From: Vulcanimicrobiaceae bacterium | GTDB lineage: Bacteria > Vulcanimicrobiota > Vulcanimicrobiia > Vulcanimicrobiales > Vulcanimicrobiaceae | Assembly: GCA_035650875.1 (NCBI GenBank) | Contig: DASRGU010000013.1 | Location: 14,495 to 78,494, forward strand | Length of the DNA: 64,000 nt | Reading direction: 5' to 3' | In this document: one piece after another, positions 6,427 to 21,147 of the stretch | How positions within the stretch are numbered: position 1 is the stretch's first letter | How the letters are laid out: every line of letters begins with the position of its first letter | Notes under the pieces: generated by a model | Told to the model about the DNA's origin: nothing | Seen by the model: only the letters and a program-made list of their open reading frames with translations | Databases searched by the model: none | Translations under genes and position numbers: made by a program

Positions 6427-6921
6427 CTAGCGAAAGCCCATCCGGCCGGCGACTTCGCGGCGCGGCTCGATCATCGCGACGGTCGCGGCCGCGACGGCGG
6501 CGTCGTAGCCTTTGTCGCCGCGCGCGGGGTCGGCGCGCTCTTCCGCTTGTGCGCGGTTGTCGGTGGTCAGAACGCCGAAACCGATGGGTATTCCGCTGGC
6601 GAGCTGGACGTCCATGATCCCGCGCGCGCACTCGCCGGCGACAAAGTCGAAGTGCGGCGTCTCACCGCGGATCACGACGCCGAGCGCGACTACGCCGTCG
6701 AGCTTCCCAGTCGCGAGCAGTCGGCGTGCCGCGAGCGGCAGCTCGAAGCAGCCGGGAACGCGGAACGTCTCGATCGCATCGGGATCGATCCCGCAGTCGA
6801 CCAGGCCGCGGCGCGCGCCGTCCTCGAGCCAGGCCGCGAGATCGGCGTAGAAGTCGGCGACGACGATCGCGAAGCGCTTCCCGGAAGCGTCGGGAAGCGC
6901 GTGCCGCTTGTCGGTCTTCAT
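6427..6921 (-). CDS. ribH: 6,7-dimethyl-8-ribityllumazine synthase
   Basis: [31 protein letters not shown]; ATGA overlap with ribBA stop. Confidence 0.95.
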
Positions 6922-8339
6922 TCCGCTCCGGCGGGATTCGGCGCGCCGAACATGTGCCCCATCTTCTCCCGCTTCGTCTCCATGTAGTACGCATTGTACG
7001 GTGTGGGAGCGATCTGGATCGCGACGCGCTCTTTGATCGTCAGCCCGTACCCCTCGAGGCCGGCGATCTTCTTCGGGTTGTTGGTGAGAAGCCGCATCTC
7101 GCGCACGCCGAGATCGTGCAGGATCTGCGAACCGATGCCGTAGTCGCGTTTGTCGGCGGGAAGGCCGAGCAGCACGTTGGCCTCGACCGTGTCGGCCCCG
7201 GCATCCTGCAGCGCGTACGCTTTCAGCTTGTTGGCGAGCCCGATCCCGCGGCCTTCCTGGTGGAGATACAGGAACACGCCGCGGCCTTCGCGCGCGATCG
7301 CCGCCATCGCAGCGTCCCTCTGCGGCCCGCAGTCGCAGCGCAGCGAGTGCAGCGCATCGCCGGTGAGACATTCGCTGTGGACGCGCACGAGAACGTCCTT
7401 TCCCTCACCGATGTCGCCCATCACGAGCGCGACGTGCGCGATCTTCTCCTTGTCGGTCGTCGTCTCGTACGCGACGCCGCGAAAGACGCCGTACCCAGTC
7501 GGCAGCGAGAATTCCGCGATTCGCGCGACGAGCTTCTCGTGCCGCATGCGGTACGCGATCAAGTCTTTGACCGTGATCATCCGCAAACCGTGCTTCTCGG
7601 AGAACTCTTTGAGGCCGTCGCGGCGCATCATCGTGCCGTCGTCCGCCATGATCTCGCAGATCACGCCGGCGGGATACAGCCCCGCGAGTCGCGCCAGATC
7701 GACCGCAGCTTCGGTTTGACCCGCGCGCACGAGCACACCGCCTTCGCGCGCGCGCAGCGGAAACGTGTGCCCGGGCCGCAGGAAGTCGGCCGGCCCGCAG
7801 TTCGGGTCGACGAGCGCCTTGATCGTATTCGCGCGATCGTGCGCGGAAATGCCCGTGGTGACCCGCCCGCGCGCCTCGACTGAGACCGAGAACGCCGTCC
7901 CGAGCGGGGCGGTGTTGTCGTTGACCATGTTCGGGATCTGCAGTTCGTCCAGCCGCTCGGACGTCATCGGGACGCAGATCAGCCCCCCGGCCTCCTTGCG
8001 CATGAAGTTGATCGCCTCGGGCGTCACCTTGACAGCTGCCATGACGAGGTCGCCCTCGTTCTCCCGATCCTCGTCGTCGAGGACGATCACCATCTGCCCG
8101 TCACGGATCGCCGCGATCGCCGACTCGATGGAGTCCATCCGCACCCGCTCGGCATCTTGGCCGGCCAGCGTAGGAAGCACCGCGGCGAGTGCCTTGACCG
8201 TGCGGTAGGTCGGCTCCCGCCGCCCGCTCCGAAGCAGCGAGATCGCGGACTCCGTAAGGCCGGAGCGCTGCGCCACTTGCGCTGCCGTTAGGCCCGCACC
8301 CGCCATCGCCGCCTGAAGCTCGTCCGCGAACCGTTCCAT
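6918..8339 (-). CDS. ribBA: XRE helix-turn-helix fused to bifunctional DHBP synthase/GTP cyclohydrolase II
   Basis: N-terminal about 65 aa [35 protein letters not shown], in frame with [13 protein letters not shown]...[10 protein letters not shown]...CDCG...QEGRGIGL. Confidence 0.92.
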
Positions 8340-8345
8340 ACGACA

Positions 8346-8374
8346 AGCCTCTCGCATGGCTTTGCAGATGTCAA
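8346..8374 (-). promoter_or_regulatory. Putative sigma70 promoter of HTH-ribBA (TTGACA-17-GAGGCT), possibly leaderless
   Basis: Perfect TTGACA at 8374-8369; weak -10 at 8351-8346 ending 7 nt before ATG 8339; no SD. Confidence 0.4.
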
Positions 8375-8530
8375 GGCGATATACTATAGGCACCAGCCTT
8401 TTCGTCGCGGTAGCTTGCTTCAGGACGGCGGCCCCGCTGGTGCCGCGAGGCGTTCGAGCCCGCACCCTGGGGTCGTCGTCCCGCAGCCCGCGCGGGGCTC
8501 GCGAGGCGGGCGTCGGAGTAGCGTCGGGAT

Positions 8531-9592
8531 ATGGAGGATAACACAGGCGGAGCTGGCGACGGTTCAACCACCGAGCCGCCCGGGCAGCAATCTCGTCCCA
8601 GAAGGCCAGACCCCGCGACGATCTGGCTCGCGATTGCTCCCGCAATCGTGTTGACGGTATTCCCGCACCTGTGGCCTCTGGTGAAGGTTGCGATGCTGGA
8701 GGCGCTTGTTTGGAGTAGCGTCCACTGGCTATTTACTGCAGTGCGACCGCTCTACGCACTGAGTCTTCCAAAGAAAACGTGGATTCATATCGGCGTGGCC
8801 CTCGCCGCGTTTTATCCGTTATTGCTCGCCGTCAACGCCGCCAACCGTGTTGATACAGGAGCGCAAGGCACCAATGGTACAGGTTCGCCGTTCCTGCAAG
8901 GCGCCGCCGGGACAAGTTCGCCGTCTCCGAAACCCCGCACAGGGCGACAGACGGGCCACGGCCCCTCAAGGCCTACGTCGAAGCAGACGACCCAAGTAGC
9001 GTCAGCCGCTCCGACCCCGCAGCAGCGCCCGAAGATTGTAGTTATAGTCGCGACGCCGGTACCAACCCCTCGGCCAACGCCGACGCCGCACGTTACCGCA
9101 ACGCCGCATCCAACGCCGTCGCCGACGCCGACTCCGATAGCAGTCACGTTCCCAAGCGTTAGTGCGGAGTTTCAGCCTAATGCGCCGGGCACGCCGCCGG
9201 GTCGTGTAACGTTTCGGGTGGGTTATCAAATCGGCAACAGGACCGGTGGCGATATTGACGTCAAGCAATGCAGCGTGGCAACGACGTCGTTGGCGAGCGT
9301 CTCAATCGCTGATGCGGAGCAATATGTCCGAACCGGTTTTCGGTCAGAGAAGGCGGCGGGGCTCTGCCGTGCGAGTCCGTTCGTCACCGTCCCGTTTGGT
9401 ACGAACGGTATAGAGTACGTTGCGAACGGCAATATGTCGCAGGAAGATTATGCGAAGATTCAGGACCGCACCTCAACCTTTTACTATGCTGGCGAAATAA
9501 CGATCCGCGTCCCGAACGGCCGGACGAGAGTCTTTCCGATATGCGGTCGCAGCACGGGCAGCGCGGAAGTGTTTCTCTGCAATAAGGAGTAG
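8531..9592 (+). CDS. Hypothetical membrane-anchored protein with Pro/Thr-rich linker (IS cargo)
   Basis: N-terminal hydrophobic segments, [25 protein letters not shown] linker, beta-rich C-terminal domain; more AT-rich codons than flanks. Confidence 0.65.
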
Positions 9593-9597
9593 CTAAA

Positions 9598-9756
9598 TTG
9601 GACGACGATCCCGAAAGATCGATGGAGCGATTCGAGGACCTTGGTCGCCGCGTTTTTCGCGTGACCAAAGAGGACCTAGCGCACGTCGAAGAATCCGACG
9701 ACGAAACCGCAGTCGAGGAATCCGAAACGACCGAGATCGTGGAGGGCGAGGACTAG
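9598..9756 (+). CDS. Small acidic protein (IS cargo)
   Basis: (L)DDDPERSMERFEDLGRRVFRVTKEDLAHVEESDDETAVEESETTEIVEGED*; below the ORF-track cutoff; alternative ATG at 9622. Confidence 0.45.
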   Translation: MDDDPERSMERFEDLGRRVFRVTKEDLAHVEESDDETAVEESETTEIVEGED

Positions 9757-9773
9757 ATGGCGACAATAGCGCC

Positions 9774-10457
9774 GTGAGCGTCCGAGCGTCTCGTCGCGCT
9801 GCGCGAGTACGGGCGTGGCTACGCGATTGGTCTACGGTCGGGGGGCTGATAGCGTTCGTCATCGCTATGGCGTTCAATGTGCTTTCAGCTCGCGATTCGG
9901 CGATCTCGGCTGAAGCATCTGCTCGGTCGGCAGCCGCGACAGAAGAGTCTGTACGCATTGAGAGCGCACCAGCCCTGACATTGCGATGTGTGGCTGGAGT
10001 TCGAGGTAATGCCGATTACGAGATACTCATCGGCTGGCCTGGGTGGCCTCTAAAGCGCTCGGTCCAAAAGTTTGAACATAGCCCGTTTCGTGAGTTCGAT
10101 TACGAGACGTGTACGCTCAGTAATTTTGGAAGATTACCAGCGCTGAATGTTCGCGTGTCGTTTAAGGCAGCGCTTTCCAAAGCGCCAGCCGACAGGTTTT
10201 CGAGGCCGGGTGCTGCTGCGGAGGCGGTCGAGACTTACGACGCCGAGATTGATGGCGTCGGAGCGCAGTCGAGCGTTACGATTTGGATTCACAACGAATC
10301 TCAGAAGACCCAAGCGATAATCTATCCGGACCCCATCGCGCATTTCAAGGTGCCCCCGAACGACGCGGAGGTGACATATTCGTTGCCCCTCTCGTTCGAG
10401 ATACCGGTCGTTCTTCGCCCTGCTCGCGCGCAGGCGCCGCCTACGGAGAAAAACTAG
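9774..10457 (+). CDS. Hypothetical protein with one N-terminal TM helix (IS cargo)
   Basis: 227-aa ORF, WSTVGGLIAFVIAMAFNVL helix followed by a soluble domain; stop overlaps the transposase stop. Confidence 0.6.
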   Translation: MSVRASRRAARVRAWLRDWSTVGGLIAFVIAMAFNVLSARDSAISAEASARSAAATEESVRIESAPALTLRCVAGVRGNADYEILIGWPGWPLKRSVQKFEHSPFREFDYETCTLSNFGRLPALNVRVSFKAALSKAPADRFSRPGAAAEAVETYDAEIDGVGAQSSVTIWIHNESQKTQAIIYPDPIAHFKVPPNDAEVTYSLPLSFEIPVVLRPARAQAPPTEKN

Positions 10458-11498
10458 ATGCGGTCGCTTGTGCCGGGAATCGGCTGCGCGTTCATCGCGG
10501 CGCGACGGGCTTCGGCGCGGGCCGCACGGCCGGGACGCAAGCGCCAACGGGGATGCGAGGTCGTGAGCGCGGCATACGTCAGGCGCTTGCCGTCCGCGCC
10601 TTTCAGCGTCTCCACGAACCGGCCCGCGTCGTTGTCCTCGCGAGCGTTGAAGCGGAATACCTGCTCGTCCAAGTATGCGTCAAGGTGGAACGGACGAACC
10701 GCGATATACGTCCCGTGCAGAGTGCGCTTCACGCACGACCAGAAGTTTTCGATGGTGTTCGTGTGAACGCGACCGTTGACGTAGGCCACCGAATGGTCGA
10801 TGAAATCGTGAACGAAATCACGGTCCGTTTGCCGATAGGAGCGCAGCGCGTCGGTGTAGAGCGTGGAGCCCGGCAGGACGTTCTCGTAAATCTTCGGGAT
10901 CAGCGAGGACGCCCGATGATTCGGGACGACCATCGCGCGGGCCTGAGACGGCTTCCCGTCGCGCCCGCGCTGCACCATCCCGAACACCGTCGTCTTACCG
11001 GCGGCAGGGCCACCGATGGGGACGTTCTTGCCGACCGCGTTCACGCGCGTAGGCAAATGCTGGTGCTTACCGCCCACGAACGTCTCGTCCGCTTCGACCT
11101 CACCGGCGAGCGGCATGAGGGATTCGGCTTTCATCGCGAGACGGATGCGGTGGAACATGAACCACGCCGTTTTCTGCGTGACGCCGAGCGCGCGAGCGAG
11201 TTCGTGCGAGCTGGTGCCGTTCTTGGTATTCGCGAGCAGCCAGAAGGCCGGGAGCCACTTAGTAAACGGAATCGGCGAGTCCTCAAAGATCGTGCCGACC
11301 TTGACGCTAAACTGCCGTTTGCACTCCTTGCAGCGCCACTCGGCGCGTCGGAATCGCCTGAACGGACGCCGATCCGCAGCCCTTGCGGGGGCAAGCAACG
11401 CCGTTGGGCCAGCGCCACCGGACCGCGTAGGCGTGGGCGCGATCCGGGTCCGAAAAGTAGGTGACGGCTTCGAGGAGGGTGGTCGGCGTCCGGTCCAT
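10454..11498 (-). pseudogene. IS1595-family DDE transposase, frameshifted near 11339
   Basis: N-terminal Zn ribbon (WPNGVACPRKGCGS) in one frame; WRCKECKRQFSVKVGTIFEDS...EADETFVGG...LYTDALRSY...HTNTIENFW in another. Confidence 0.9.
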
Positions 11499-11744
11499 GC
11501 TCCAACGCTATACCGAGGGTGTGCCTGCTGGGTGGCACTCTTTTGTGCCTCAAGTATATCGTCCTGGCAGATGTCAAGCAGCTCTTTAACGGGCGAAATG
11601 ATAAGCAGCCGAGCGAGCGACGTGAACCACAGCCCGACGTCTCGGTCCAACTATGGACGGAATCTGCTCGAGTCGACGTCGGAACCGCTCGCCAATGGCC
11701 TAGTCGCGGCCCTTCTGACGTCGGCGCGACCGAAAAGCCCGTCG

Positions 11745-12230
11745 TCAGGCGGCAGCGCGGACTTTCTTTTTGGGACGCGATTCTGCAGCTTTCGGCGGTC
11801 TGCCACCCTTTAGCCCATTCGCACGCGACGCTGCCGCCCGCGCCGGCGACGTACGCGCGGCTAATAAGCGTGCCGCTATCGTCGCCAGCGCATCGCCGGC
11901 CACTGCCTCAAAGAGCGTCTCGACGCGCGCGCCCATGTCCGCTTTGTCTGACCAGACGGAAAAGCCGGATTTTTGCGCCCTAAGGTCGCCGAGCAGTCCC
12001 GCCGGCGCTTTATTGATTCCCGGGAGCTTGCTCCGCGGGACGATCAGCGTCCCGCCGGTGGAGAGCTTGACGATTATTGCGTCACCCTTCGCGTCGAAGA
12101 ACGCACTCACGATTCGGGTCGCGGTCTTCGCTCGCGACCGAGCTTCTGCAACGGCCGCTCGGATTTCAGCGTCAGTCGTTCGGATTCGGGCGGGCTTCAC
12201 AATTTTCGGTTTTGCAGCATTCTTGCTCAT
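11745..12230 (-). CDS. DUF2442 domain protein (putative antitoxin)
   Basis: IIVKLSTGGTLIVP...LWSD-like core, C-terminal SPARAAASRANGLKGGRP; ATGA overlap with DUF4160 gene. Confidence 0.75.
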   Translation of the reverse strand: MSKNAAKPKIVKPARIRTTDAEIRAAVAEARSRAKTATRIVSAFFDAKGDAIIVKLSTGGTLIVPRSKLPGINKAPAGLLGDLRAQKSGFSVWSDKADMGARVETLFEAVAGDALATIAARLLAARTSPARAAASRANGLKGGRPPKAAESRPKKKVRAAA

Positions 12231-12487
12231 GATGGACGGCTGTTCTCCCATAGCTCCAGCAGATCGTCGTAGCCGGCGGCCGCAGCACGCAGAGCTTTCC
12301 GCACGTCGTTCGCCTTCACGTGCGGGTCCGCTTTATGCTGTTCCGAGAGGCGGATGGAACGATCCGCCAGCAGCTCGATATCGACGTCGCCCTCGTTGAA
12401 GTGGGCATGAACGTGCGGTATTGAGGCGCCGGCATGGTCGCCGGAGTAGCATTGGAACCTGACGCCGCGAACGTTCTTCGATCCCAT
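12227..12487 (-). CDS. DUF4160 domain protein (putative toxin)
   Basis: GVRFQCYSGDHAGASIPHVHAHF...LLELWE. Confidence 0.8.
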   Translation of the reverse strand: MGSKNVRGVRFQCYSGDHAGASIPHVHAHFNEGDVDIELLADRSIRLSEQHKADPHVKANDVRKALRAAAAGYDDLLELWENSRPS

Positions 12488-12762
12488 CGGCTACTGCATT
12501 GTAACCCAGCGCCAGGTTTTCGTCTAGCCCGTTTGCGCACACGGCCGGCGGCGCGTTACCCGGTTCCATCGAGGTCGACGGCTGGGGGCCAATCTTCAGC
12601 CCGCAGTCCCTCTAGACACCACGGGCGGATCATCGATCCCTCGTAAGGTGGGTTCAGCGGCCTTCCCGCCGGCTGCCGATGATCGCCGCCGCAAGTCCCG
12701 ATCGCGCTTTGGATGCGTTCGGTCGTTTCGGGCCGAGGCAGAAGCGCAGCGGCGCTGGCCCT

Positions 12763-13548
12763 TTAGTCCGTCGGTACGTAGCCGAGTCGTCGCTCGAACT
12801 GCGCTCGCGACGCGCAGTTTTCGTCGATCTGAGCGCTACACAGAATCGTAGGAAACGACGCGGTCGTCGTCGCGGCGATGCGCGCCCACAGTAGCGCAGC
12901 GAACGGATCCTCTCGCTGCAACGAAACGTAAATACTGCGCTGCGTCGGCGATGAGACGCGGTATTTCGCCATGAGCCGGTTTCGGCAGAACGTCGAAGGC
13001 TTCGCGTAGAAGCACCCGAGCCAGCCACGCGAGTCATTTTTCGCATACGAGATAGGCGCGGCATGGAAGCGGCGGTACGTCACCATGTTCCCGTCGACAA
13101 GCCCGATTCCGGTGACGCGCAAGGTCACGCGGTACGGCGGCTGCCATCCCGAGGCGAAGCGGTCGACCGCGCTCTTCCGGATCGCTATTACGTAACGACC
13201 TAAAGGCAGCTGTAGTTCGGCTCCGAGGTCCATGACGAGCGTTTGCCGCGGCCGTAAGCTGCCGAACAAGACGCGCCGAACGTCGACCGAGTACAGCCGA
13301 TCATCGTGCAGCTCGCTCCGCAGGTTCTGCAGGATATCGGCGTCGATCAGTGCGTCAGACGCAAAGGCGACTTCCGGCGGCTCGAGTTTGTCGACCATGT
13401 TCGGACTTCCGTGCGGGATAACGGGCTGATTCAGAAACGCGTTGCGCGCATCGTCCCTGCACAGCACCGTGCCGACGACGGACGCGATGAGCAGTAGCGA
13501 CAGAACGGCGCCCTGCATGGCTCGACACCCCGCCCCGTTCATGAACAC
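12763..13548 (-). CDS. Hypothetical secreted protein
   Basis: 261-aa ORF with a hydrophobic N-terminus; no family recognised. Confidence 0.5.
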   Translation of the reverse strand: MFMNGAGCRAMQGAVLSLLLIASVVGTVLCRDDARNAFLNQPVIPHGSPNMVDKLEPPEVAFASDALIDADILQNLRSELHDDRLYSVDVRRVLFGSLRPRQTLVMDLGAELQLPLGRYVIAIRKSAVDRFASGWQPPYRVTLRVTGIGLVDGNMVTYRRFHAAPISYAKNDSRGWLGCFYAKPSTFCRNRLMAKYRVSSPTQRSIYVSLQREDPFAALLWARIAATTTASFPTILCSAQIDENCASRAQFERRLGYVPTD

Positions 13549-13650
13549 ACGTGCCGCAGTCTAGCGATCGTCATGCGAGCTTTGGTACTCGCGACAAGTC
13601 TCAGCTTCTTTCGCAGTGGCTTCACGTGCGTCGCAACTTTGCTATAACGG

Positions 13651-13679
13651 TTGTCGAACACGCGTTCGCATGCTACAAT
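13651..13679 (+). promoter_or_regulatory. Putative sigma70 promoter TTGTCG-17-TACAAT
   Basis: Near-consensus boxes with 17-bp spacer upstream of ORF 13756. Confidence 0.5.
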
Positions 13680-13755
13680 ACTCACATACAAACTCAGCGG
13701 CTCGGCCGGTGTTAGCGCACCGACCGAGCCCGTCAAGCGATGGGAGTATCCACCG

Positions 13756-14094
13756 ATGACATTTCCGTTGTTCTTCGGCTGCGCGCCGAGACTCCTCGAC
13801 GATCCGGAGTTCCGCGCCAAGCGCGTTCGGCGGGATCCCGCTGGCGATGCCGAGGACGTCGTAGCCGACGTCCCCGATCGCGCGCTTTGGGTGCAGTTCG
13901 GGTTCACCGAAGAGGAAGCGCGCGAGTGGCGCGCAGCGGCGAGTCCGCGCTTCACGCCCTTCACCGCGGCGACGTGGCGCTTCGAAGGCTTCGGCCCCAG
14001 CGACGCCGCGTTGTGGAGCCAAGTATACTGCGATCCGATGCTCGCGCGGCAACGCCGTAACCGCGGCTACGCCGACCCGTTCATCACCGACTGA
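13756..14094 (+). CDS. Hypothetical protein
   Basis: ATG preceded by GGGAG; Trp-rich WxxxGF repeats. Confidence 0.55.
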   Translation: MTFPLFFGCAPRLLDDPEFRAKRVRRDPAGDAEDVVADVPDRALWVQFGFTEEEAREWRAAASPRFTPFTAATWRFEGFGPSDAALWSQVYCDPMLARQRRNRGYADPFITD

Positions 14095-18068: not shown

Positions 18069-18515
18069 TCAGCTCCCGCCCAGCGCGGCGCGCAGCGGCT
18101 CGGGAATGCGCGTCGCGCGCAGCGTCGTGCGGTCCACGGCTGCGAGGACGAGCGTCGCCGCGACGAGGAGCGTTCCGTCGTCGCGTTCGACGCGGAACGC
18201 GAACGTCAGCGACGAGCCGCCGATTTTTTCGAGCGTGGCGGTCGTCACCAGCTCATCGTCGAGCTTCGCGGGTGCGCGGTACTCGCACTCGAAGCGCACG
18301 CGGGCGATCCAGACGCCGAACTGGTCGGCGATCGCGTCGTACGTCCAGCCGATCGCGCGGAAGAACTCCGTCTCCGCCGCTTCGATGAAGCGCGAGTAGT
18401 TCGCGTGGTAGACGATGCCCATCATGTCGAGATCGCGCCAGCGCACGCGCTCCCGCACGGCCGGTCCCACGCGCAACGGCGCCTCCGCGTGCGCTGCGCG
18501 CTCGCGGCTGCTCAC
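18069..18515 (-). CDS. Acyl-CoA thioesterase (YbgC/4HBT family)
   Basis: VRWRDLDMMGIVYHANYSRFIEAA, EYRAPAKLDD; GTGA overlap with ribE stop. Confidence 0.88.
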   Translation of the reverse strand: MSSRERAAHAEAPLRVGPAVRERVRWRDLDMMGIVYHANYSRFIEAAETEFFRAIGWTYDAIADQFGVWIARVRFECEYRAPAKLDDELVTTATLEKIGGSSLTFAFRVERDDGTLLVAATLVLAAVDRTTLRATRIPEPLRAALGGS

Positions 18516-19126
18516 GCGCGAGCCGCGCGCGCGTACGCCTCGAGCGCGCCCTGTGCGTAGCGGGCGACGGGATCGACTTCGATGTTCACGCGGTCGCCGC
18601 CGTTTTTCGTGCCGAGCGTCGTCCGCCGCGCGGTCTCCGGGATGAGCGCGATGCTGAAGCGACCGTCGTCCGCCGCCGCGACGGTCAGGCTGACGCCGTC
18701 GACCGCGACGTAGCCTTTTTCGACGATGAACGGCGCGAGCGCGGGCGGCAGTTCGACGTGCAGCCGGAATCCTTGCCCCTCCGGTTCCTTCGCGAGAACT
18801 GCGGCGTTTGCGTCGACGTGTCCGTAGACGAGGTGGCCGCCGAGACGGTCGCCGAGCCGCAGCGACAGCTCGACGTTCAGCCGGTCGCCCGCATGCAACG
18901 TCTCGAACGCGGTGCGTGCGATCGTCTCCGGCACGACGTCGAAGCGCATCGTCCGCTCGTCGAATCCGACGACGGTGAGGCACACGCCGTTGACCGCGAC
19001 GGAGTCTCCGAGCGCGACACCATCGGCGATGGCGCCTGGCGCTTCGACGATCAGGGTCATGCCGCGCTCGCGATCGCCGTCGATCGTGGCGACGCGGCCG
19101 TCGTGCGCGATCAGGCCGGAGAACAC
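18512..19126 (-). CDS. ribE: Riboflavin synthase alpha chain
   Basis: (M)FSGLI N-terminus, GDSVAVNGVCLTV, GGHLVYGHVD, VDGVSLTV. Confidence 0.95.
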   Translation of the reverse strand: MFSGLIAHDGRVATIDGDRERGMTLIVEAPGAIADGVALGDSVAVNGVCLTVVGFDERTMRFDVVPETIARTAFETLHAGDRLNVELSLRLGDRLGGHLVYGHVDANAAVLAKEPEGQGFRLHVELPPALAPFIVEKGYVAVDGVSLTVAAADDGRFSIALIPETARRTTLGTKNGGDRVNIEVDPVARYAQGALEAYARAARA

Positions 19127-20235
19127 GTGGTGAGATCCGCGGAGAGCAGCATGTCGTCGCCGAGGCGTTCGCTGCGATCGAAGCGCCATCCGTTCACGGC
19201 CGCGACGTCCGCGCCGGCGAGCACCGGCACGGCGTCGTCTCCGCGCAGCAGCCTCGGCGCGATCAGCCACACGAGCCGCTGCACCAGATTGCCGGCCAGC
19301 AGCCTTCCGGCCAGCGTCGGGCCGCCCTCGCACAGCACGCTCGCGATCCCGCGCTCGCGCAGCGCGACGAGGGCCGCTTCGAGGTCCAGCGTCGCGGCAT
19401 CCGGCGCGCCCGCGTACACGACGTCCGCACGGCCTTCGAGCGCCGCGAAGCGGTCGCGCGCGGCGCCCGGCGCCAGCACGATCGTCGGCGCGTACGCGCC
19501 GAGCGGCGCGTCGTCCACCGTCCGCAGGACGGCGCTCTCCGGCGAGATCGGATCGCGCTCGCAAACGACGACGCGCACGTACGGCTTGCGACGCGAGCGA
19601 TGCGGACGCACGGTGAGCAGCGGATCGTCGACGCGAATCGTTCCCGCGCCGACCATCACGGCGTCGTGGTCCGCACGCAGGTCGCGGACGCGCTCGCGGG
19701 CGAGCGGGCCGGTGAGCCAATCCTGTTCGCCGCGGTGCGCCGAGACGTAGCCGTCGAGCGACATCGCCATCTTCAGCGTCACGTACGGGCGATCGTGCGC
19801 GATCGTCCAGCGGAAGCGCTCGATCAGCGCGCGCGACGCCGTGTCGTCGAGCACGTCGACCGCCACGCCGTTCTCGCGCAGCCGCGCCACGCCGCTCGCC
19901 GCCGTCTTCGGATTCGGGTCGAGCGCGCCGGCGACAACGCGCGCGACGCCGGCTTCGAGCAGCGCGTTCGTGCACGGCGGCGTGCGTCCGTGGTGGTTGC
20001 ACGGCTCCAGCGAGACGTACGCCGTCGCTCCGCGCGCGTCGTTCCCGCGCGTGCGCGCGTCGCGAAGCGCCTCGACTTCGGCGTGCGCCTCGCCGCGACG
20101 GCGATGCCATCCCTCGCCGAGCGTCACGCCGTCGCGCACGAGCACGCAGCCGACCGGCGGATTCGGCGCCGCGTCGGCGATCGCGCGCGACGCCAGCTCG
20201 ACGGCGCGCGCCAGGTACGTCGCGTCGACGCTTAC
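19111..20235 (-). CDS. ribD: Riboflavin biosynthesis deaminase/reductase; start codon uncertain
   Basis: PNPPVGCVLV, HAEVEAL, SLEPCNHHGRTPPC, KMAMSLDG, EGGPTLAG; the expected start position reads GTA (in-frame ATG upstream at 20316). Confidence 0.92.
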   Translation of the reverse strand, partial: VSVDATYLARAVELASRAIADAAPNPPVGCVLVRDGVTLGEGWHRRRGEAHAEVEALRDARTRGNDARGATAYVSLEPCNHHGRTPPCTNALLEAGVARVVAGALDPNPKTAASGVARLRENGVAVDVLDDTASRALIERFRWTIAHDRPYVTLKMAMSLDGYVSAHRGEQDWLTGPLARERVRDLRADHDAVMVGAGTIRVDDPLLTVRPHRSRRKPYVRVVVCERDPISPESAVLRTVDDAPLGAYAPTIVLAPGAARDRFAALEGRADVVYAGAPDAATLDLEAALVALRERGIASVLCEGGPTLAGRLLAGNLVQRLVWLIAPRLLRGDDAVPVLAGADVAAVNGWRFDRSERLGDDMLLSADLTTCSPA

Positions 20236-20513
20236 GGCTTCACCTCGACGCCCTTCCAGAAAGCGACGTACCCCTCGATGTTCTTCGCCGCGTCTTTCGC
20301 CTGCGGGTAGTACCACGCCGCGTCACGGTTCTGCGCGCCGTCGACCTCGACGGTGTAGTAGCTTGCGGTGCCCTTCCACGGGCAGACGCTGTGGGTGTCC
20401 GAAGCCCGGAAGAACTCGCGCTTCACCGCGTCGGGCGGGAAGTAGTGGTTGCCCTCGACGACTTCGGTGCGGTCGCTTTCGGCCAGGACGGCCCCGTTCC
20501 AGATCGCTTTCAT
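20232..20513 (-). CDS. DUF427 domain protein
   Basis: MKAIWNGAVLAESD, EGNHYFPP, CPWKGTASYY, AAWYYP. Confidence 0.92.
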   Translation of the reverse strand: MKAIWNGAVLAESDRTEVVEGNHYFPPDAVKREFFRASDTHSVCPWKGTASYYTVEVDGAQNRDAAWYYPQAKDAAKNIEGYVAFWKGVEVKP

Positions 20514-20556
20514 GCGACGTCATCGACCGGCCGACGAAATGGAATGGTTCCAGCGG

Positions 20557-21147
20557 TCAGTCCTCCGTCCGCGCGAGGACGACGAACCGGCGGACGCGGG
20601 CGCCGGCGGCCCGCACCGCGGCGGCCGCGTCCCCGAGCGTCGCGCCGGTCGTGCAGACGTCGTCGAGCAGCGTCACCTCGGCCGGGACGCTCGCGCCGCG
20701 GCGGATGCGGAAGCGGCCGCGGGCCAGCAGGCGGGCATGCCGGTTGCGGCCGGCCTGCGCGCCGCCCCGCTTCTCCAGCACGTCGGCGTACGGTGCGCGG
20801 CGCGCCGCGGCGAACCGGCGCGCCAGCTCGACGCTTTGGTCGAAGCCGCGCTGCGCCGCACGGGCCCGCGACGTCGGCACGGGGACGAGCACGCCGTCGA
20901 GCGGCGCGCGCTCCTCCAGCAGCGCCCCGAACGCATCGAGCGGATCGCGCTCGCCGCGCTTCATCGCGACGATCGCCTCGCGCAATGCGCCCTCGTAGGG
21001 CCCGAGCGCGAACGCCGGAACGCCCTCGAGCGCGAAGCTCAGCGCCTCGGTGGGATGCGGCTCGCAGCCGCGGCACAGCGCGGGCCCCGGCTCGCCGCAC
21101 GCCGCGCACGCGGACGGAAAGAGCCACGACCGAATCCAGTCCAGCAC
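20557..21147 (-). CDS. comF: ComF family phosphoribosyltransferase-like protein
   Basis: CAACG..LCRGC zinc finger, RGFDQS, LLDDVCTTGATL. Confidence 0.88.
   Translation of the reverse strand: MLDWIRSWLFPSACAACGEPGPALCRGCEPHPTEALSFALEGVPAFALGPYEGALREAIVAMKRGERDPLDAFGALLEERAPLDGVLVPVPTSRARAAQRGFDQSVELARRFAAARRAPYADVLEKRGGAQAGRNRHARLLARGRFRIRRGASVPAEVTLLDDVCTTGATLGDAAAAVRAAGARVRRFVVLARTED

Follow-up and report, generated by a model that had tools for sequence, protein, structure and literature searches.

Bacterial riboflavin genes are a textbook case of riboswitch control, and the flavin mononucleotide (FMN) riboswitch (RF00050) provides feedback control of rib genes in most bacteria. No bacterial transcription factor dedicated to riboflavin genes was described in the literature that we searched, and the one precedent for such a regulator was archaeal RbkR, a riboflavin kinase fused to a winged helix-turn-helix (HTH) domain (Rodionova et al., 2017; PMC5397151). 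Here we analyzed a stretch of 64,000 nucleotides from contig DASRGU010000013.1 of a Vulcanimicrobiaceae bacterium (the window, to which coordinates refer unless another locus is named). The minus strand of the window encodes the riboflavin enzyme RibBA with an XRE-type HTH domain at its N-terminus. As judged from the conservation of this domain and of a palindrome at the promoter of its gene, the protein, hereafter HTH-RibBA, probably represses its own ribBA-ribH operon.

RbkR resembles HTH-RibBA in that a riboflavin-pathway enzyme carries an N-terminal DNA-binding domain, with predicted or demonstrated operators on rib genes and frequent autoregulation (PMC5397151), and in that control is protein-based where no FMN riboswitch acts. 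RbkR differs in that its enzyme is a CTP-dependent riboflavin kinase, which catalyzes the last step and senses FMN and CTP, its DNA-binding domain is a winged HTH, and its hosts are Archaea. Further, RbkR regulons take in most rib and transporter genes, whereas the predicted site of HTH-RibBA lies on ribBA-ribH only, and the enzyme of HTH-RibBA catalyzes the first step and, unlike RbkR, is not product-binding. The bacterial proteins BirA, NadR and PutA likewise combine catalytic activity with a DNA-binding domain at the N-terminus, and each represses genes of the pathway in which it works; however, their enzymes and DNA-binding folds are unrelated to those of HTH-RibBA, and their co-repressor logic is known (biotinyl-AMP, NAD, and proline or redox state, respectively). 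HTH-RibBA stands outside the RbkR, BirA, NadR and PutA families, because the enzyme and the DNA-binding fold both differ. Our literature searches found no prior description of an HTH-RibBA fusion.

The HTH-ribBA gene and its relatives

The operon comprises the following coding features.

6918–8339, minus strand: HTH-ribBA coding sequence, 473 residues (start codon ATG at 8339–8337, stop codon at 6920–6918; open reading frame translation, Pfam, NCBIfam)
8169–8339, minus strand: N-terminal XRE/Cro-type HTH domain, residues 1–57 (Pfam, AlphaFold2, conservation, substitution rates)
8139–8168, minus strand: flexible linker, residues 58–67 (low model confidence, indels and poor conservation in the alignment)
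8136–8138, minus strand: codon of the internal Met68 (MDSIESA), the start position of ordinary RibBA (alignment with PDB 4i14 from residue 66)
7551–8126, minus strand: 3,4-dihydroxy-2-butanone 4-phosphate (DHBP) synthase (RibB) domain, residues 72–263 (PF00926, TIGR00506)
7023–7523, minus strand: GTP cyclohydrolase II (RibA) domain, residues 273–439 (PF00925, TIGR00505)
6427–6921, minus strand: ribH (lumazine synthase), second in the operon, with its start codon and the stop codon of ribBA overlapping in ATGA (TIGR00114, 138 bits; PF00885)

An earlier note on this DNA had reported about 65 extra residues with an HTH in frame on RibBA, and our analysis bore this out. The open reading frame of the window runs from the HTH to the enzyme without any stop, and a separate gene call on the source contig gave the identical ribBA start. 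Pfam detected HTH_3 at residues 10–56 (32.2 bits; cut-off, 23) and HTH_31 at residues 3–55 (33.0 bits; cut-off, 27); by these matches, the head of HTH-RibBA is a member of the XRE family. Among solved members, it was weakly similar to a phage immunity repressor and the 434 repressor (best E value, 0.0017). AlphaFold2 placed helices at residues 2–15, 19–26, 30–38 (the recognition helix) and 45–54, with predicted local distance difference test (pLDDT) scores of 77–92. The pLDDT was lower than 55 in the linker (residues ~57–68) and lower than 50 at residues 61–66. The HTH is thus predicted to fold confidently as a helical bundle joined to a disordered linker of about 12 residues, which varied in both sequence and length among orthologs, as indicated by indels in the alignment.

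The enzyme part matched DHBP_synthase (PF00926) at residues 72–263 (E value, 1e-89; profile positions 1–191 of 191) and GTP_cyclohydro2 (PF00925) at residues 273–439 (E value, 1e-70; profile positions 2–164 of 165). Further, the RibBA equivalog NF006803 of NCBIfam covered residues 63–465 with 624.3 bits (cut-off, 569). Ordinary RibBA is represented by RibA2 of Mycobacterium tuberculosis (PDB 4i14), which aligned end to end with residues 66–464 of the window protein (E value, 2e-141); it starts at the Met68 position and lacks the HTH. The active-site signature motifs of both enzymes, including the HSEC...CDCG zinc site, EGRGIG and TNNP, were invariant in an alignment of 86 sequences, and we take the residues of these motifs to be catalytic. 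Judged by its domains and motifs, the enzyme part is an intact bifunctional RibBA, in which the two enzymes at the entry to riboflavin synthesis are combined.

The best 120 relatives of the window protein (75–95% identity) were all 450–508 residues long, and HTH matches were detected by Pfam in 113 of them. With the divergent member L155 as the query, another 120 clusters were obtained, which were of fused length except P0274 and of which nearly all had HTH matches; P0274 is an N-terminally truncated gene call (409 residues) on the same contig as L155. The relatives were named Candidatus Eremiobacterota or Vulcanimicrobiota (formerly WPS-2) and included the cultured Vulcanimicrobium alpinum. 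A metagenome scan with the N-terminal domain alone as the query yielded 80 independent loci of Eremiobacterota/Vulcanimicrobiota. The HTH ran in frame into the DHBP synthase in all 80 loci, none of which held an ortholog without the HTH or with the HTH encoded separately. The homologous first codon was ATG or GTG in 75 of the 80, and an in-frame stop usually lay 24–33 nt upstream.

Further, metatranscriptome contigs from peat and permafrost matched two related loci (L093 and L145) exactly and covered HTH codons, and one RNA contig spanned the HTH into the DHBP synthase (L145, 5121–5407). The window sequence itself, which belongs to a contig from a soil metagenome, was matched only in one DNA run. 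These results bear on whether the fusion is an artefact of assembly or annotation, or arose locally and recently when a stop codon was lost, the last of which had been raised in the earlier note. This explanation is almost certainly wrong: the same in-frame architecture occurred in 80 independent contigs, the 240 listed clusters (NCBI, JGI, ENA and Logan) were of approximately fused length and nearly all carried the HTH, and the RNA contig crosses the junction between the HTH and the DHBP synthase. By these comparisons, the fusion is ancient and genuine and no local accident.

Among 20 diverse orthologs, 21 positions were invariant in the 75-residue N-terminal region, and those within the HTH included the recognition helix A-I-S-x-x-R-x-G-x-R-x-P. 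The pairwise ratio of nonsynonymous to synonymous substitution rates (dN/dS) was approximately 0.21 across the HTH versus 0.15 across the first part of the DHBP synthase, both values being rough with dS near saturation. On this evidence, the HTH is under purifying selection.

Outside the clade, no HTH fusion was found among the best 150 representatives (clustered at 50% identity) of other lineages. Clustering at 50% hides the clade itself behind an unfused representative, and this search is therefore weak evidence on spread. None of 77 unfused ribBA loci of other phyla, three of which had longer matches and were inspected directly, carried an HTH on ribBA; these loci were taken as controls from a GTDB scan with the full protein and are not a survey of spread. 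Among the matches listed in that scan, which was dominated by ordinary RibBA, only L002–L004 carried the HTH. Loci L065, L069 and L017, with matches starting at residues 28–49, were considered as fusions and proved on inspection to be ordinary RibBA, and P0226, considered as a fusion outside the clade, is a eukaryote-type RibA-RibB with a low-complexity spacer. Both surveys were capped in the number of matches, and they do not prove that the fusion is absent from other lineages.

Since the correct start codon is GTG or is located 11 codons upstream, public gene calls often begin at a later Met and omit either helix 1 or the entire HTH. Examples are P0024 (V. alpinum, 460 residues), P0274 and many entries of 459–461 residues. 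Database architectures therefore under-report the fusion.

The internal Met68 had been suggested as the start of an isoform without the HTH. Such an isoform is possible in some lineages, but it is not a conserved feature. Among the 39 loci with an MDSIESA-type motif, which make up the subclade of the window, the Met68 codon was ATG in 33. A Shine-Dalgarno-like GGAG preceded the internal ATG by 4–7 nt in 27 of the 39 (for example, GAGCGGAGCACC-ATG in L086, L088 and L090); the version in the window (GAGCGGGTGCGG-ATG) is a weaker match. In contrast, the second large subclade has Phe at the Met68 position: of the 19 remaining complete loci, most read PFD there. The GGAG and ATG of the near subclade may allow an HTH-less isoform. 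Further, the pattern suggests that the linker is a translated former 5' untranslated region, in which the old ribosome-binding site now reads as the conserved residues ERS.

A palindrome at the ribBA promoter

The promoter region in the window contains the following elements.

8360–8375, minus strand: predicted operator, an imperfect 16-bp palindrome CTTGACA-TC-TGCAAAG (76 of 76 promoters; weight matrix)
8369–8374, minus strand: −35 hexamer TTGACA within the left half-site (sequence, conservation), here supplied by the terminal 7 bp of an insertion sequence (IS)
8346–8351, minus strand: −10-like hexamer GAGGCT, 17 nt after the −35 hexamer and 6 nt before the ATG (comparative pattern)

When the DNA upstream of the start codon was lined up for 76 distinct orthologous loci, a 16-bp palindrome, CTTGACA-(A/T)(C/T)-TGT(T/A)AAG, was present in every promoter. 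Eleven positions of the 16-mer were at least 92% conserved, and the surrounding DNA could not be aligned. The two halves are reverse complements of each other (CTTNACA on the left, TGTNAAG on the right), and TGT and AA in the right half were conserved like the −35 hexamer (92–100%). Since the right half is conserved equally to the left, promoter function alone is an insufficient explanation. Symmetric pairing extended over 5–7 of the 7 positions in 73 of 75 sites, and the palindrome ended 19–24 nt from the start codon in 68 of the 76 loci. The apparent exception L158 carried a degenerate copy, ATTAACAGTTGTAAAC, nearer to the start codon than the site assigned automatically.

The element named in the earlier note was a different one, a 5-8-5 inverted repeat (AAGCC at 8345–8349 and GGCTT at 8358–8362). 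This repeat is present in the sequence, but it is short and lies between the operator and the −10 hexamer, a stretch in which the orthologous promoters show no conservation; the conserved element is the 16-mer overlapping the −35 hexamer.

Downstream of the palindrome, a −10-like hexamer nAnnCT (for example, TAGGCT or GAGTCT) was found 16–18 nt after the −35 hexamer, with A at position 2 in 63 and T at position 6 in 70 of 73 loci. The gap between its end and the start codon was 6–9 nt in 66 of the 73, and the ribBA mRNA is thus probably leaderless, starting at the HTH start codon. Such a geometry would mean that the HTH is translated and that there is no room for a riboswitch; the FMN riboswitch differs from the system considered here in that it is RNA-based and requires a leader of ~150 nt, whereas the predicted ribBA transcript is leaderless. 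The most 5' RNA fragments started at +8 (L093) and +25 (L145), and among the sparse contigs of these two loci no RNA fragment crossed the start codon from upstream. The RNA fragments thus agree with the predicted start and are too few for a map of transcription start sites.

We examined the specificity of the palindrome with a weight matrix built from 75 operator sites, which scored a median of 28 bits; the site of the window scored 23.9 bits. No match of at least 18 bits was found in 837 kb around the 77 unfused ribBA genes, and none at a promoter. In 620 kb of DNA from the clade, the other strong matches were IS junction copies only. The palindrome therefore appears, over the DNA scanned, exactly where the HTH occurs. 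The extra copies in the clade were considered as members of a regulon and rejected, because they are IS junctions that share a locus-specific central dinucleotide. Further, tblastn detected no stand-alone paralogue of the HTH in ~600 kb of clade DNA, including the DNA beside the extra palindromes. No other conserved regulator gene was present at the ribBA locus, and the upstream neighbours differed between loci. An operator-like 16-mer, CATGGCAGCTGTCAAG, was noted inside the ribBA coding sequence at 8028–8043 (minus strand), at the conserved codons of VMAA(V/E)KV; with 2 mismatches and 11–13 bits, it is probably there by chance.

The joint occurrence of the domain and the palindrome is relevant to the possibility that the N-terminal domain is a conserved appendage without a role in transcription, serving as a protein-protein or nucleoid tether or persisting as a leftover of the fusion that is kept for its leaderless start codon. 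The enzyme part alone does equal ordinary RibBA, and the near subclade keeps the Shine-Dalgarno-like GGAG and ATG at the old start, so that an HTH-less enzyme may also be made. However, the HTH is under purifying selection with invariant residues in its recognition helix, and a palindrome of matching symmetry was present in 76 of 76 promoters of HTH-bearing genes versus 0 of 77 controls. We regard the appendage explanation as very improbable.

An IS1595-family element in the predicted operator

In approximately one quarter of the loci, including the window, an IS was present at the same operator site.

8369–11569, strand unassigned: IS1595-family element, ~3.2 kb, of lower GC content (terminal inverted repeats, junctions, transposase NF033547)
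11563–11578, minus strand: distal junction 16-mer CTTGACA-TC-TGCCAGG (weight matrix score, 13.7 bits), ~65 nt upstream of the transposase start

The minus strand of the window reads CTTGACA-TC-[TGCCAGGACGATATACTTGAGGCAC ... 3.2 kb ... GTGCCTATAGTATATCGCCTTGACA]-TC-TGCAAAG, in which the dinucleotide TC is duplicated at the flanks of the IS (8367–8368 and 11570–11571). The element is bounded by a 35-nt terminal inverted repeat (8359–8393 and 11545–11579; 74% complementary). The tips of the IS (TGYCARG...) copy the operator half-sites and the insertion lies at the 2-bp centre; each junction therefore re-forms the 16-mer, and the −35 hexamer of ribBA in the window is now provided by the IS end. 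The apparent target-site duplication is 2 bp (TC), with duplication of the whole 16-mer as the alternative reading; the IS1595 family usually makes a target duplication of 8 bp. The same arrangement was observed in related loci, sometimes as tandem arrays (L086, L090 and L103), and junction copies elsewhere shared a locus-specific central dinucleotide (CC, GC or AC).

The transposase matched NF033547 (183.5 bits; cut-off, 75) and PF12762, and the IS also holds two passenger open reading frames to which no function was assigned. The transposase gene (10454–11498, minus strand) is divided between two frames: a Zn-ribbon N-terminus (MDRTPTTLLEAV..., 11498–11307) stops after 63 residues, and the DDE part (10454–11398) lies in another frame. 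Intact single open reading frames of 330–350 residues were found in L086, L090 and L111. In the window, the gene may be a pseudogene or may rely on a programmed frameshift, or the break may be an error of sequencing.

The AGTATATC arm 5' of the −35 hexamer was initially a candidate for a part of the operator or an UP element. It was rejected as such, because it tracks the IS1595 transposase and equals the IS end: the arm and the transposase gene were both present in 8 loci and both absent from 34, and 4 loci were mixed.

Given these observations, the palindrome might mainly be a feature of the mobile element, which mimics the junction of two inverted repeats and acts as a hot spot for the transposase, while the HTH does something else. 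Conservation at ribBA would then reflect the −35 box together with IS activity. Consistent with this explanation, the IS ends equal the operator half-sites, the element occupies the 2-bp centre precisely, a locus-specific spacer is common to the junction copies of any one locus, and the IS arm co-occurs with the transposase gene in the counts given above. However, the 34 loci with at least 2.5 kb of upstream DNA and neither the IS arm nor the transposase keep the full palindrome, which indicates that a host function is needed for its conservation; in its absence, the TGTNAAG half would be expected to diverge as the flanks have done. Further, the fixed distance to the start codon and the restriction of the palindrome to HTH-bearing ribBA would be left unexplained. 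We therefore assign only a small chance to the palindrome being mainly an IS feature. The roles of operator and IS target are compatible, and the IS may exploit a host operator.

The IS also carries (A/G)(T/C)GATATACT, an (extended) −10-like box that faces the transposase directly after the junction palindrome (11545–11562; in L103, 1879–1895) and is followed by a GTGCC-N8-GGCAC hairpin and a Shine-Dalgarno sequence. Any protein bound to the junction 16-mer would sit on the transposase promoter.

Predicted autoregulation and its reach

DHBP synthase domains are homodimers, as in RibB of Escherichia coli and RibA2 of M. tuberculosis. A dimer of HTH-RibBA would present two HTH heads on flexible linkers of ~12 residues, and the two heads would bind the two half-sites of CTTGACA-NN-TGTNAAG, the centres of which are 9 bp apart. 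With its centre near −30, the operator would extend over the −35 hexamer and about as far as the middle of the spacer, and bound HTH-RibBA would exclude RNA polymerase. This negative autoregulation would hold RibBA and RibH at a set level. The predicted arrangement resembles that of XRE/Cro-cI repressors (434, phage immunity repressors and HipB), which share HTH_3/HTH_31 domains, a helical bundle (predicted here), a palindrome over their own −35 hexamer and half-site centres about one helical turn apart. They differ in having a small C-terminal dimerisation domain, whereas HTH-RibBA has a large metabolic enzyme. XRE regulators typically bind palindromes as dimers and regulate their own genes (PMC12565409).

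The proposal in the earlier note that RibBA represses its own operon is strengthened by the age of the fusion and by the conserved palindrome on its own promoter, but the inverted repeat that it named is not the conserved element. From sequence comparison, we infer that the HTH binds DNA, that it represses and does not activate, and that the transcript lacks a leader. Repression is favoured because the site overlies the −35 hexamer with its centre near −30, which is the classic geometry of polymerase exclusion. It is speculative that GTP, ribulose-5-phosphate, a pathway product or a flavin modulates binding; plain negative autoregulation of the pathway entry enzyme is the minimal model.

Binding of the HTH to the palindrome might instead activate transcription, or might switch between activation and repression according to a ligand. 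Activation from sites touching the −35 hexamer does occur with some XRE/cI-type proteins, and the weak −10 hexamer could use a helper. Activator sites, however, are normally centred at −41 or further upstream, whereas the centre of this site near −30, over the −35 hexamer and the spacer, gives the usual occlusion geometry, and a perfect TTGACA argues against the need for an activator. Activation thus has a slim chance of being correct, and repression by HTH-RibBA of its own operon is the reading that we retain.

Several observations weigh against repression from this promoter. The right half-site of the window has TGC instead of TGT. Measured against the E. coli consensus, the −10 hexamer is weak, and it was assigned from the comparative pattern; likewise, a generic scan for sigma-70 promoters and terminators, in which the consensus is of the E. 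coli type, detected nothing at the ribBA promoter. In one locus, L133 (4795–5000), an inserted leader separates the start codon from the upstream operator and promoter by ~165 nt, and the transcript of this locus is therefore not leaderless. The RNA support for the 5' end consists of a few fragments from libraries of a kind that can contain DNA, and run X2 is probably DNA. Further, the transposase probably recognises the palindrome too, because the IS inserts at the palindrome and has ends that mimic it. Finally, no operator was found in the window or in L162 before the genes that precede and include the second rib block, which in the window contains the following features.

19111–~20250, minus strand: ribD
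18512–~19110, minus strand: ribE

At 18512–20560 (minus strand), this block lies behind genes for a comF-like phosphoribosyltransferase and a DUF427 (NTP_transf_9) protein, the stop of the DUF427 gene overlaps the likely start of ribD, and the order comF-like/DUF427/ribD/ribE is also found in L162. Since ribD-ribE has no operator, HTH-RibBA would not control the whole pathway and its control would be local. The gap between ribE and ribBA holds different genes in different genomes, including three solute-binding proteins in L162. In the window, the GC content is 55–64% at ~8550–13800 versus 68–73% elsewhere, and the low GC content beyond the IS, up to ~13.8 kb, suggests that the interval from ribE to ribBA holds other foreign DNA as well.

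The locus had been described as lacking an FMN riboswitch, and this was confirmed: RF00050 was unmatched in the 64-kb window both at the gathering score and at E ≤ 1, including the ribD-ribE block, for which no riboswitch was found in the window. There was also no RF00050 match in 12 fused loci. The further suggestion that HTH-RibBA replaces riboswitch control is not established, since RF00050 was equally absent within 6 kb in 11 unfused ribBA loci of other phyla and since ribD-ribE lacks the operator. Absence of the riboswitch alone is therefore no proof of replacement.

A wider reading joins these results: HTH-RibBA would be a metabolite-sensing repressor of ribBA-ribH that responds to its own substrate or a flavin, and its operator would have been co-opted by an IS1595-family element that rebuilds two operators, one on ribBA and one that puts the transposase promoter under the host repressor. 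We offer this combination tentatively and consider it unlikely as a whole.

If repression by HTH-RibBA is true, it would provide a concrete mechanism of protein-based control across a poorly known phylum, Eremiobacterota/Vulcanimicrobiota, and the enzyme of the first step would become one of the few enzymes that also serve as repressors. The predicted system is compact, with a precisely defined 16-bp operator and a 57-residue HTH module for which the enzyme would supply dimerisation. Further, the IS at the operator centre illustrates cleanly, in a natural setting, how a mobile element targets and regenerates a regulatory site. If HTH-RibBA is in addition a metabolite-sensing repressor, it would be a phylum-wide bacterial counterpart of archaeal RbkR.

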